Source: Octopus vulgaris
Taxonomy: Eukaryota
Reading direction: 5' to 3'
DNA: 64,000 nt
Assembly (NCBI GenBank): GCA_951406725.2
Contig: OX597838.1
Span: 37,510,001-37,574,000, forward strand
This document shows positions 23,735 through 36,689 of the stretch, piece by piece. Every line of letters starts with the position of its first letter. The stretch's first letter is position 1. The position numbers were made by a program, and so were the translations under genes. Under the pieces are notes generated by a model. That model saw nothing but the letters and a program-made list of their open reading frames with translations. It did no database searches and was not told where the DNA came from.

Positions 23735-24617
23735 TCCTTTTCTTTTTTAAGTTTCAGCTCAGAGCTGCGGCCATGCTGATGCACCGCCGTTTAGCGCTAC
23801 ACTGTTATTACTAGAAGCCTCCTCTAATATGTGGCGCTTGATGAAGAATGGAGTTTGATACAGCTACCCTCATTTGCACCTCTTGCCGTGAGGTAGGCTC
23901 ATCTGGGACTCTCGACAGGAAGAGGTCCAGCTTTGATTTAAAAACCCCTACATCTACTTTGTGCAAATTCCTCAGACTCTTTGGGAGAATATTAAAAAGC
24001 TGTGGGCCCTTGAAACCCAGGCTGTTGCAGTAACTGGCCCTGAAGCGTGATGGCATTGCTGGGATCTTTGGCACTATGCAGTGTCGTCCCGTTCTGGCAT
24101 TGGTGTAGCTTTCAATGCCAAAATTTGGCACAATTCCTTCCAGGATCTTCCAGATATATATTACTGCATACCTCTCCCGTCTTCTCTCCAGGGAGTAGAG
24201 TCTTAGCTGTTTCAACCTTTCCCAGTAGCTGAGCTGTTGCAAAGAGACGATCTTCTTTGTAAATCTTCTCTGGATTGCTTCAAGGTCCACTGTGAGCAGT
24301 AATCCAGGCGGCTGGGGACAAATGTCCGCCAGAGGACCATCATGGTTTCCTTATCTCTGGTTCTGAATGTTCTTAGGATCCATCCAGCCAATCGTCTACA
24401 CTTTGTCGCCATCCTGGTAATGTGCATTTGGAAAGAGGTGTCCTCACTCATGTTGATACCCAGGTCCCTCACAGACTTAGGCTCTGGGATTGAAATACCC
24501 TGTGGACCGGTGTACCCTGTAGGTTCAATATTCAATTTTGGATGCTGGTAGCGCAGGGCCTGGAATTTTTCAGCATTAAACTGCATATTATTATCATTAT
24601 CCTCAGCCCATCTGTAA
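23735..24617 (-). mobile_element. 3' fragment (~0.9 kb) of a related LINE subfamily
   Basis: MQFNAEKFQALRY...RDLGI...[11 protein letters not shown]...[10 protein letters not shown]...KLDLFLSRVPDEP aligns with the 10515 LINE; small internal deletion/frameshift near 24290; same 3' stem-loop tail. Confidence 0.92.
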
Positions 24618-24619
24618 AT

Positions 24620-24760
24620 TGACCCCTGATGTACTCTTTGGCCCCAACTTTCTCTCACTCTTTCTTCTTGTTTCTTGAGTAACGCTGCGATGGACTGGCA
24701 TCCCGTCCAGCTGGGTGGGTACAGATACGTCACAGAAACCGGGAAACTTGGTCCATGAGC
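24620..24760 (+). mobile_element. SINE family C internal fragment
   Basis: ccctgatgtactctt...actttctctcactctttcttc matches the reverse complement of 33750-33800. Confidence 0.55.
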
Positions 24761-25235
24761 GCATAAATAAAAAAAAGGGCGCATAAAAAAAATAATACTA
24801 TAAAATACAAGTATAATTAAGGGCATAGAAAACACCATGCCTATGCTGAAAATGGACGCCAAATCATCAAACCACTTAAAAATTATTACTTTTTTTGTAC
24901 ACAACGTGTTGAAATCGAGGCAGCAGGCTCTTAGAATTTTATAAATTATCTTTGGATTGATCAATTTCTGGATTAGTCGAATAACGTTTCTTCATCTGCA
25001 AGATATACTTCGATAAATAAATTAGATATTTATACATATCCACAGGAAAGTAAACTCAAAGCTACGGTTACTTACAAATACCACAAATACATCTGCGAAA
25101 TGTAAAATCTAAAAGCGAATCTGTTATCGAGAAGTGTTACAGGTTGATACGAAAAATTGGCAAAGATTGTGATGCATCAGTAATTATTTTGCTTGATTCT
25201 ATGAAAGTATGGGCAGCAAATAGAGGGAGAGAGAA

Positions 25236-33527: not shown

Positions 33528-34067
33528 TACACGACAGCCTTCTTTCAGTTTTCGTCTAGAAAGGAAGCATTCCGTCGGTTACGACGACGAGGGTTCCGGT
33601 TGATCCGATCAACGGAACAGCCTGCTCGTGAAATTAACGTGTAAGTGGCTGAGCACTCCACAGACACGTGTACCCTTAACGTAGTTCTCGGAGATATTCT
33701 GCGTGACACAGAGAGTACAAGGCCGGCCCTTTGAAATACAGGTACAACAGAAACAGGAAGAAAGAGTGAGAGAAAGTTGTGGTGAAAGAGTACAGCAGGG
33801 ATCACCACCATCCCCTGCCGGAGCCTCGTGGAGCTTTAGGTGTTTTAGCTCAATAAACACTCACAACGCCCGGTCTTGGAATCGAAACCGCGATCCTACG
33901 ACCGCGAGTCCGCTGCCCTAACCACTGGGCCATTGCGCCTCCAGTTTTCGTCTACAAATCCACTCACAAGGCTTTGGTCGGCCTGAAACTATAGTAGAAC
34001 ATACTTGGCCAAGGTTCCACACAGTGTGACTGAACCTGGAGCCATGTGGTTGTAAAGCAAGCTTCTT
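33528..34067 (-). mobile_element. Host SINE family A (body and part of head), interrupted twice; the head resumes at 36641-36672
   Basis: acgacagccttctttcagttttcgtcta | caaatccactcacaagg...ccatgtggttgtaaagcaagcttctt || gaagcaaaccttttaccacacaactacgcctg. Confidence 0.88.
33559..33941 (-). mobile_element. SINE family C, full length, with a 13-bp TSD
   Basis: TSD cagttttcgtcta at 33546-33558 and 33942-33954; tRNA-like head gaggcgcaatggcccagtggttagggcagcggactcgc...gtttcgattcc. Confidence 0.92.
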
Positions 34068-34555
34068 TATTTCATTACATTTGCCATAAAGGCAATAGAT
34101 AGAGTAAAGTAGCTTTGCGGGCTGGACAAGGACATTAATGAAATGAATGATAATGAAAGGAAGTTGATAAGGATGGGAGACGAAAAGCGCCCGCCGACCT
34201 CTGCTCCTCTAAAACATTGTTCTTTAAAACCAAACACAAAACGAGGTATTGAACCTCTTACAACTTTTACAACTTTTCAATTTTTGGACTTAACAGTCCA
34301 TTACAAGCAACAACATGGTTCAATAAGTACATATAATATATAAATACAATACACAAAACCCCTCCTCCCAGACCTGGCTTACGCTTTCCTTAAGCAATGC
34401 ACCAGCTCTAGGTCGGGGCTCCTGATGGTGTATCTAAACATGTCCTTTGAGAAGGTGTTCATTACCCTGACCATAGCGACATCCGATATGATCTTCGTAG
34501 TCACCTGCGAAGGCCACTCTTCGTCCCCTGTCCAGGGCATGGGCTCCTCCTTCCG
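34068..34555 (-). mobile_element. 5'-truncated member of the ORF1-only element family
   Basis: 34554->34379 encodes RKEEPMPWTGDEEWPSQVTTKIISDV...SPDLELVHCLRKA*, similar to the C-terminus of the adjacent ORF; ends AAATAAA directly on the SINE target sequence. Confidence 0.75.
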
Positions 34556-34570
34556 GGAAGCAAGCTTCTT

Positions 34571-36640
34571 TATTTTATCAAATTAGCCATGGAGACCTTA
34601 CACTTACATAAAAATCAACAAGTCAATCAAACATAAAAAATACATTATCACTTTTCCATTCCTCCTCTTTCCGGATCCCCAGCCGAATATCTAGCCGCCT
34701 GCTGATCAGACCACGTTGACAGCCGGGAGTTCAGAAAGAAGGCGAAGTGCCTATTATCAAATGTTTGTGTCACACAGTGCCACAATTTATAACTCATCCT
34801 CAACATAACTTGTGCCCGCATCCTCTGCCATCCTCCACGCCTCTTTCAAAATCGAATCGAGTTCCGTGTCAGCGTTGCCCGGGTACAAGCGATATTCCTC
34901 ATTGAGCCCCTTCGGCCTAAACGTCACGTCAAACGTTATGGCCTCGACAGCTATCTGCGGAGGCCATTCGGGGTCCTGTGGGAAGGCTAAAGGTGCTCCC
35001 TTATGGTGCTTTTCCATCACCTTTTCAATCTCTCCGCCTCTATAGAAGAAGATCAATACTTCGTCTTCCTCCGGGGTCGGGATATCCAATTCTTCCGTTG
35101 GCGGCACAGTTCCCGCCAACGGTGTTTCTTCTCCTGCCGGTGGCACAACCCCAACCGACGTAGTTCCGGGACATTCCGGTACTATGTCACCGACTGCCGG
35201 CAATGTTCCGTTTCTCTTCCTCTTCCTTTTTTTTCTTCTTTTCAACTGAGGGAGGGTACGTCTCTTCCGTGGCCGGAAGATTCGCCTTCCCCTCCTCATC
35301 CCTAGGATCCTTCGGTGAGCACCCATTGTTGCTCACCTTCCTCTTTCGGCCCTTGTTTGAGAAGTCCTCCGCTTCCTCGGCCGCCTTCATTCCCTCTTCT
35401 ACAGGGGTCTCACTCAACTGTTCTGGGACCTTATTTTGTTCCCGGGAACAGTTTCTCTTTATATGGCCGGACCCCAGGCACCGATGACATCTGGGGGGGG
35501 GGGGCGACCCACAAGTATCACCGGGTACCTGCACCCGGCCATTTTAAAAAAATCTGGAAAAACCAGATTGGCCGATTGGGTCCAAAGGGTCAAAACAGCT
35601 TTTGGCCCAACCCAGTCAACCGCAGGAAGAACTTTCACATTAAGAAGCTTGGTCCCGCTGCCACCCAGACCCCGGCGGATAGTCTCCTCTATCCACTCGG
35701 GTTTTATCCCGGGTGGTGGCAACCCGCAGACCCAAGCTTTCGTCACCCTCCTCTCATAATACGCGGGAAGGAACAAAATTTTCTCACCCTCCAAGGGTTG
35801 ACTCGCAAATTTGTGAGCCATTTCAGGGGTATCAAATACCAACCATACCGTTGCATATCTGACAAATACTCTGCCAACTTCTTTTCAATTGCCATCTTTT
35901 CGAATAGGGCGATGGTGTCGAGTGACTTGGAGTAGGTTCTCAACACCACCGCCCTATCTTCACGGTCTTTCAACCACTTTTTGGGCGCTATAATCTCCCA
36001 CTCCAAAATTTTATCTTTTTTCATTGCCATGTTTCTTTTTCTTTTTTTTTTGAAAATATATTCAAAATAAAACTTAAAAAGCGAGAAGAAAAAAGAAATC
36101 AAAAGAAAGTCACAATAAACAAAAAGGAGAAGGTCAAATAAAGTTTAGAAGAAAGAAAGTCAATGGTTCAGGAACACAGCAAAAAATTCTTCCGGCCATT
36201 CGGTACTCCCGGCCTAGGTTGAACCCGGAACGCCACAACTGGAACACAACTTCCACAAAAATTGATATACAAATTGTTCAATCTTCGGAGGCAAAAACAC
36301 TCCCCCAAACAGCAGTTCTCACAATTATTAAAGTTCTTCAAAAGGCACAATACAAGCAATAATTCTCATAATTAAGTGAGAAAAAATATTCACCCAACAT
36401 AAACCGAAGACGAATACGCCCCCAAACAAAAATTCTCACAATTCAGCGAGAAAAATTATTTGCCCCATGTAGGACTTCCTGCCTCTACAAAAACAATTCT
36501 CAACAAAATTTCCTACTGTACCCAAAAAACAGAATCTTACCTTACAATGGAGCTTCAAAATTTTTCAATTCGAGACGGTTTCAAAAGCATGTCTCACCTC
36601 TTTGGTGCCGAACACTACAATTATTCGCACATGCGCAGAG
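34571..36640 (-). mobile_element. ~2.1-kb ORF1-only (HAL1-like) non-autonomous retroelement of L1/Tx1-like type
   Basis: ~600-bp 5' UTR, one gag-like ORF with a CCHC knuckle, ~215-bp 3' UTR ending AAATAAA; no RT or EN; flanked by SINE-head target sequence. Confidence 0.75.
34787..36030 (-). pseudogene. ORF1/gag-like nucleic-acid-binding protein (~410 aa, CX2CX4HX4C knuckle), about 3 frameshifts
   Basis: MAMKKDKILEWEII...; VFDTPEMAHKF...VTKAWVCGLPPPGIKPEWI...YPVILVGRPP; RCHRCLGSGHIKRNC; a basic/acidic linker; C-terminal domain ...QDPEWPPQ...DTELDSILKEAW...EDEL*. Pieces lie in ORFs 35743..36102, 35459..35842, 35187..35534 and 34787..35326. Confidence 0.8.
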
Positions 36641-36689
36641 GAAGCAAACCTTTTACCACACAACTACGCCTGATCTATCTACCTATCAC

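Follow-up and report, generated by a model that had tools for sequence, protein, structure and literature searches.

A fused ORF1-only retroelement in an octopus SINE and a site-sharing autonomous LINE as its candidate partner

The window, a 64,000-nt stretch of octopus DNA on which all element coordinates below are based, contains on its minus strand what we interpret as a single copy of an ORF1-only retroelement formed by fusion, likely copied by target-primed reverse transcription (TPRT) into a fixed site in a SINE with the ORF2p of a full-length element supplied in trans; we assign this reading a probability of about 0.85. The common insertion site and a common 3′ hairpin suggest the use of partner ORF2 in trans. 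Together the elements make up a three-tier parasite system of SINE, site-specific LINE and ORF1-only riders, which can be assayed because young intact members exist.

Organization of the element

Along the minus strand, a SINE head is followed by a degenerate target, a 2.07-kb element, an internal target, a 0.49-kb piece, and target with the remaining SINE (Table 1). The sequence details in the initial annotation are all present, including AAGGTTTGCTTC (36641–36652, within the 5′ target copy), the position of GAAGCTTGCTTCCC, both quoted ORF1 C-termini, and the 18-mer AAGCAAGCTTCTTTATTT, which is identical at 34055–34072 and 34558–34575 and occurs just twice in the window. The description of the two 3′ UTRs as otherwise dissimilar was too strong, as both have a terminal hairpin and AATAAA layout; the inner hairpin has a predicted −3.0 kcal/mol in the fused element versus −8.4 in the stand-alone copy L026. 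Downstream of the element, the host SINE picks up again at 33545 past a nested SINE-like repeat. The A-box label on the SINE-head motif is presumptive and follows the A-box consensus.

Table 1. Features of the fused element and its host SINE in the window.
Feature	Position	Strand	Remarks
Host SINE head, 5′ remnant with A-box-like motif (…gtgtggtaa)	36653..36672	−	Matches head of intact SINE copies
5′ target copy, 13 nt	36640..36652	−	Degenerate here; likely ~7 nt of true duplication plus element-borne leader
5′ UTR of ORF1-only element	36031..36639	−	
ORF1, four reading-frame pieces	34787..36030	−	56–77% identity to intact ORF1 of L331
CCHC knuckle in ORF1	near 35445–35492	−	
Inner 3′ UTR	34569..34786	−	~116 nt shorter than stand-alone L026; terminal hairpin weakened
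Internal target copy	34555..34568	−	Fixed in fused family; holds GAAGCTTGCTTCCC
C-terminal ORF1 fragment of captured second family	34379..34554	−	Second family is 5′-truncated
Captured 3′ UTR, functional end of fused element	34066..34378	−	AATAAA last, no poly(A) tail
Terminal hairpin of captured 3′ UTR, then AATAAA	about 34082–34094	−	
3′ target copy and host SINE body	33942..34065	−	
Different SINE-like repeat nested in host SINE	33558..33941	−	Flanked by 12-bp direct repeat AGACGAAAACTG

No ORF2 similarity is present inside the element, as had been claimed for it, and the window's sole ORF2 match, a distant RT, lies outside it (11503–12648). This belongs with another minus-strand fragment at about 23800–24991 to unrelated LINE RTs that we take to be CR1/L2-like from their look; the first is 22% identical to the partner ORF2 described below. 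The window copy is probably dead, because its ORF1 is split into four frame pieces, an alternative source of the breaks being homopolymer errors in the assembly. A Pfam search of these pieces returned nothing beyond a sub-threshold knuckle.

Two further observations concern the window. A scan of its repeats is dominated by microsatellites, with kilobase-long (AT)n-rich tracts of near 5% GC at about 7850–10500 and 13600–18000. A near-palindrome, GCGCATG(T/C)GC(G/A), opens many of the ORF1-only families (36639–36625 in the window, and the 5′ ends of L331, L257 and L126); it resembles an NRF1 site and may be an internal promoter.

An autonomous partner with a common 3′ end

An autonomous element encoding EN and RT and having the same junction had been predicted, and was found as a 5.45-kb family, first traced through the ORF2 C-terminus in 3 of 30 junction-pattern loci. 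Its copies are 96–99.6% identical and encode a 467-aa ORF1 with a CCHC knuckle and a 1,133-aa ORF2, the latter uninterrupted in 5 of the 20 copies fetched. Pfam domains include RVT_1 (1e-27), Exo_endo_phos (3e-12) and zf-RVT (4e-9). The RT falls with the L1 group over the R2 type (human L1 ORF2p, E 1e-66; R2, E 1e-20), and L1 ORF2p is the nearest relative of solved structure. All 41 distinct partner 3′ junctions start at the target, every one of them GTAG, mostly in SINE bodies and some directly before another element. At one locus (L199, L200; contig C9, 2.665–2.677 Mb) an autonomous element lies in a head-to-tail run joined by target.

Two ORFs, an AP endonuclease, an RT, a C-terminal zinc motif and a preference for a multicopy target are Tx1-type features of the partner, which likely belongs to the Tx1 clade as judged by anatomy and behavior rather than by named Tx1 references. 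RRM domains with a CCHC knuckle are typical of Tx1-clade ORF1 proteins. Two sister families (RT identity 77% and 74%) terminate in (TC)n and (ATT)n, which are either targets or tails; they include young autonomous members with intact ORF2s of 1138 and 1145 aa (L311–L319 and L320–L328). The SINE-targeting autonomous copies form one branch apart from these sisters (support 99).

The ends of autonomous and ORF1-only elements have in common a 4-bp stem with a 5-nt loop upstream of AATAAA. In an alignment of this hairpin 95.6% of cells are paired and 17 are changed on both sides, with none of 500 shuffles as high and slid controls at 10–49%, in a covariation statistic that related sequences can inflate. 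The 3′ ends of the elements lack a tail and are exact, AATAAA lying flush on the target. Contigs from presumed-RNA runs span the junction, with no poly(A) end among the matches listed, and are of a kind that does not locate RNA ends.

ORF1-only lineages

A survey of ORF1 reduced 183 matches to 39 clusters, and a quick tree of these contains two ORF1-only lineages, which have the insertion site in common with each other and with the partner. Lineage II is nested among autonomous elements. Lineage I, which includes the window element, lies beyond the microsatellite-associated families in distance from the partner, with 29% identity over 190 aa between its ORF1 and that of the partner. The ORF1-only anatomy noted in the window extends through lineage I: no EN follows ORF1 in the 24 cluster representatives, of which 18 end at the junction and 6 have no call, and ORF2 matches are absent from all 20 further loci.

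ORF1 is under purifying selection in lineage I, the one lineage tested, with dN/dS of 0.06–0.38 between families, at dS of up to 3.6 and with one pair saturated, and of 0.39–0.76 among close copies. Intact relatives are predicted to encode two RRMs, a CCHC knuckle, a low-complexity linker and a C-terminal domain. An alignment-based model of a homologous ORF1 shows two RRM-like domains and a knuckle, with a pLDDT of 87 and best matches to tandem-RRM proteins at E 3e-4 but a TM of about 0.3; the single-sequence fold has a pLDDT of 38, and ZCCHC3-like proteins are look-alikes among the comparisons. A protein search with ORF1 matched a single relative, annotated in Octopus sinensis as an "uncharacterized protein" (P0121; 61% identity); it is a lineage-I ORF1, probably a transposon annotated as a gene. 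Together with a protein relative from Argonauta hians, it points to an octopus host. Longer proteins sought with the ORF1 alignment were not found, a result of little weight.

A model for insertion and the choice of target variant

We propose that the RNA of the element would bind its own ORF1p in cis and recruit partner ORF2p via the 3′ hairpin. Cleavage by the endonuclease would fall between AA and G(A/T)AG on the lower strand and about 7 nt farther downstream on the upper one. The transcript would extend past AATAAA by a few bases, into the target flanking the donor, and pairing of those bases with the primer strand could account for exact, tailless 3′ ends. At the other end, a 5′ leader (GCTTCC or GCTAAC) would make up the duplicated 7 nt to a new target of 13 nt lying behind the SINE head, and later elements could land in front of earlier ones owing to this rebuilt target.

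Older families are found at GAAG…TTCCC and younger ones at GTAG…T(A/T)ACC. GAAG accounts for 21 of the first 100 intact SINE heads listed, which all lie at the beginning of a single contig, versus none of 39 young autonomous junctions, a few of them stacked (Fisher p about 0.001). The age of the SINEs can account for the old GAAG preference and not for the young GTAG one. The shift would reflect either a change in the endonuclease or pairing of RNA past AATAAA with the primer strand, both of which the sequence alone allows.

That the endonuclease by itself sets the site, one change in it having moved all dependent families from GAAG to GTAG with RNA–DNA pairing irrelevant, is a serious contender that falls just short of an even bet, and it departs from our model solely at the RNA-primer pairing step. 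It fits with a single origin of GTAG use both on the tree of autonomous elements (support 82) and on the window lineage's ORF1 tree, and with the GTAG sites of all young families sampled, but it sits less well with exact, tailless 3′ ends that place a poly(A)-signal-like hexamer flush on the target, with a leader sequence that follows the preferred variant, and with the exceptions to the trend of variant with age (L396 at GAAG, L006 at GTAG). A broader and doubtful extension of the pairing model is that target choice is partly RNA-borne, flank and leader copying the parental SINE variant, so that a preference could be passed on with the protein unchanged and would track SINE evolution, with self-renewing stacks acting as a nursery for 3′-end exchange and new families.

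Target duplication and stacks

The elements have the non-LTR traits of 5′ truncations, a fixed 3′ end and a target site duplication (TSD) of variable length. A TSD of 12–16 bp had been anticipated; the direct repeat is present, and its length was overstated since part of the 5′ copy is element-borne. The 5′ 13-mer of full-length copies tracks the family and not the local target, with 0 of 14 variants at positions 8–13 common to both ends; at positions 2–6 this is true of 1 of 5. Shared variants are seen in L334 at position 5 and in L260 at position 7, and the four unshared ones at 2–6, in older copies, together with TSDs of 4–15 nt in truncated copies, leave the cut geometry uncertain. The 13-bp "TSD" is likely composed of a ~7-bp duplication and an element-borne leader, the latter rebuilding the target.

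Such a leader would account for mixed stacks, the largest of which has 9 units. Runs of 7, 8 and 9 units were found, each inside one SINE and with up to four families plus the autonomous element, and these mixed stacks elsewhere in the genome bear out tandem stacking as a phenomenon. In the C10 stack a junction variant arises at one unit, recurs in upstream junctions and is absent downstream, which suggests that the stack grew toward the SINE head. Units of the C1 stack differ by 8.8 mismatches within the stack versus about 20 between stacks, so that some stacking reflects local duplication or multimer copying. Extending this to all long homogeneous stacks, as local tandem duplications or assembly artifacts instead of repeated insertions, is a reading that we consider somewhat improbable: within-array identity does exceed between-array identity at C1 and C5, and junction variants are uniform within arrays, but arrays also contain up to four families that are no more than 70% identical, with target at every joint, and single-site specificity is beyond the reach of duplication. 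Elsewhere, near-identical dispersed copies with common flanks (L088, L089; contigs C28, C31 and C39) suggest segmental duplication.

Insertion into pre-existing SINE copies

The insertion point of the genome-wide system is a single base, between …GGTAA and G(A/T)AGCTT…, directly past the A-box-like motif of a SINE whose exact intact head occurs at least 87,796 times in the 2.8-Gb genome searched. The target is high-copy and short, lacks an ORF and has a tail rich in simple repeats. Its head gave no tRNA call by Rfam or ARAGORN, and its best match to 30 tRNA loci, covering few isotypes, is barely above shuffles, leaving A/B-box-like motifs only. The window itself contains seven uninterrupted heads of this SINE (7514, 30647, 50795, 56004, 58004, 58262 and 60250), six with GTAG and one with GAAG. 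As a separate observation, tRNA-Lys(TTT)- and tRNA-Thr-like sequences, many slightly diverged and possibly tRNA-derived repeats, dominate the tRNA matches (L357–L380).

The junction 16-mer AAATAAAGWAGCTTKS has 1,848 genome occurrences, a lower bound, versus 115 for a reversed control, so the junction is not due to chance. Element copies were collected by element sequence and not by flank, in genome searches that yield best matches and not a random sample. Tabulation of 3′ junctions, as the initial annotation had advised, places 40 of 42 distinct fused-family 3′ ends at the SINE target, 34 of them by script and 6, in diverged or partial SINEs, by eye; the two others (L020, L029) are off target. 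Among fused-family copies the element tails are 95.6% identical, against 76.5% for the SINE flanks, which means that the SINE copies were there before the elements entered them, and this flank divergence and the junction shared across copies both support site-specific insertion. Insertion splits the A- and B-box-like motifs and would likely silence that SINE copy.

A hitch-hiking origin, in which one SINE with its element was amplified whole and no targeting took place, is very improbable. It would accommodate the element-borne piece of target in full-length copies and about ten short copies with no SINE head at their 5′ end, for which target deletion or later insertion are the candidate explanations at hand, but SINE flanks are far more diverged than elements (also at 85.7 versus 99.5%), young near-identical elements occupy several SINE subvariants, and many unrelated 3′ UTRs abut the same base. 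Truncated copies, moreover, rejoin the head at differing internal points, both among short copies of 60–85 nt (L094, L096) and among longer ones (L017, L039). When DNA contigs were compared with L332 for an empty site, the same joints proved to be made by other SINE copies.

Origin and descendants of the fused element

The 2.1-kb and 0.5-kb parts had been read as two independent insertions at the same nucleotide, which is contradicted at the window locus by the 30 copies nearest to its 2.1-kb part. Eleven of these, the window copy included, run through an intact internal target into the 0.5-kb piece, in 16 the junction has been lost by deletion, in 2 other deletions lead into the same tail, and a single copy (L026) is unfused and keeps a complete 3′ UTR of its own, such that 29 of 30 carry the same fusion. 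The window pair is a single fused element whose tandem arose once in an ancestor and was then copied as a unit, and the internal gaagcttgcttccc is therefore the fused family's own sequence. That the internal target is instead part of the second element's own ORF1 was rejected, since relatives differ there.

The 0.5-kb unit stands alone behind a SINE head in 6 of 46 copies. These solos mix with fused copies (6 changes versus 5.3 when shuffled, on a poorly resolved tree), and a separate short family is unsupported on this weak tree; solos are as expected if cDNA synthesis stops and anneals at the internal target. Separate arrival of the 2.1-kb and 0.5-kb elements in the window's SINE copy is a very improbable account, since the solos and the true mixed stacks elsewhere that might favor it are outweighed by the prevalence of the fusion, with 11 identical internal junctions, by a loss of the same ~116 nt from the inner 3′ UTR across fused copies, and by solos that are not grouped apart, as truncation at the internal target predicts, within the limits of the tree.

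The single fused element likely founded younger families. Deletion has gone further in younger copies, up to 2.2-kb families in which an intact ~414-aa ORF1 lies directly on the captured tail, and the ORF1-only tree gives the order stand-alone, fused, junction-deleted and young intact, the same as the deletion series. This tree has 59 rows, some from loci fetched twice, and SH-aLRT values of 98–100 at key nodes; the stage trees are quick trees made without bootstrap. Given this order, 3′ ends were likely exchanged within a stack, from which a lineage arose. Read-through of one stack would have let the upstream element adopt its neighbor's 3′ end, its own then decaying by successive deletions to give the young 2.2-kb families with intact ORF1. 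Fused-family identity is about 93–95%; sampled GAAG-type autonomous copies are 68–92% alike, hence older, so none can be assigned as the exact driver.

Significance and comparison with known systems

The graded series of copies appears to capture a 3′ UTR swap, through stacking at a common target, read-through and stepwise deletion. That ORF1 has stayed under purifying selection while synonymous divergence reached saturation is relevant to the question of why non-autonomous elements retain it. The GAAG-to-GTAG shift and the microsatellite-associated sisters (74–77% RT identity) provide natural pairs for weighing AP-endonuclease specificity against RNA-primer pairing, a question relevant to site-specific insertion tools.

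HAL1 elements have a poly(A) tail and loose targeting. The octopus riders differ in that they lack poly(A), are site-specific, and encode a two-RRM and CCHC ORF1 homologous to that of a local partner; they work like HAL1 and are not HAL1 members. HAL1 (half-L1) is described, in the part of the source used here, as a non-autonomous derivative of mammalian L1 that encodes ORF1p only, as the riders do, and arose more than once (PMC5753468).

Among Tx1-clade elements, the sections drawn on describe target-specific Tx1L in Tx1D, Tx1-Mar in Mariner-N4_AMi, Keno, and Kibi/Koshi (PMC4494074). The likeness includes an APE and RT element inserted in another repeat, a target common to non-autonomous SINEU, and tandem insertion (PMC4494074), and the sister families here, ending in (TC)n or (ATT)n, recall Kibi. 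In contrast, the octopus target is one base of a SINE head and its riders encode a conserved ORF1 and are not SINEs; target regeneration and fusion-born families are octopus features not found in those sections (PMC4494074). Another study lists L1-Tx1 families for an octopus, with targets not given there (PMC13282606).

Also comparable are R1Bm and SART1, site-specific APE elements for which downstream target in the RNA is reported, in the portion cited, to aid accurate priming (PMC7265360), but which belong to a different clade and use rDNA or telomere targets, and the Dada DNA transposons, which according to the excerpt insert inside small-RNA genes with 6–7-bp TSDs (PMC8869645) but are without RT. 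Each ingredient of the octopus system has precedent, in Tx1-Mar/SINEU, HAL1 and TRE5-A.2. The literature searched, which covered neither Repbase nor Dfam, where the families may be named, yielded no SINE-head target, site-specific ORF1-only radiation or birth of families by stack fusion, and the combination is unreported within it.

A similar design is that of Dictyostelium TRE5-A.2, an ORF1-only element for which use of ORF1 in cis and ORF2 in trans was shown experimentally, and which inserts position-specifically about 50 bp upstream of tRNA genes via contact with TFIIIB/C and requires a 3′ RNA structure, in the pages relied on (PMC3159450). The octopus riders have the same ORF1-only, site-bound design, with cis and trans roles that their sequences suggest. 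TRE5-A.2 as described there arose from its partner by deletion and is still close to it, whereas octopus lineage I is 29% identical to its partner in ORF1 and has diversified to saturated dS.
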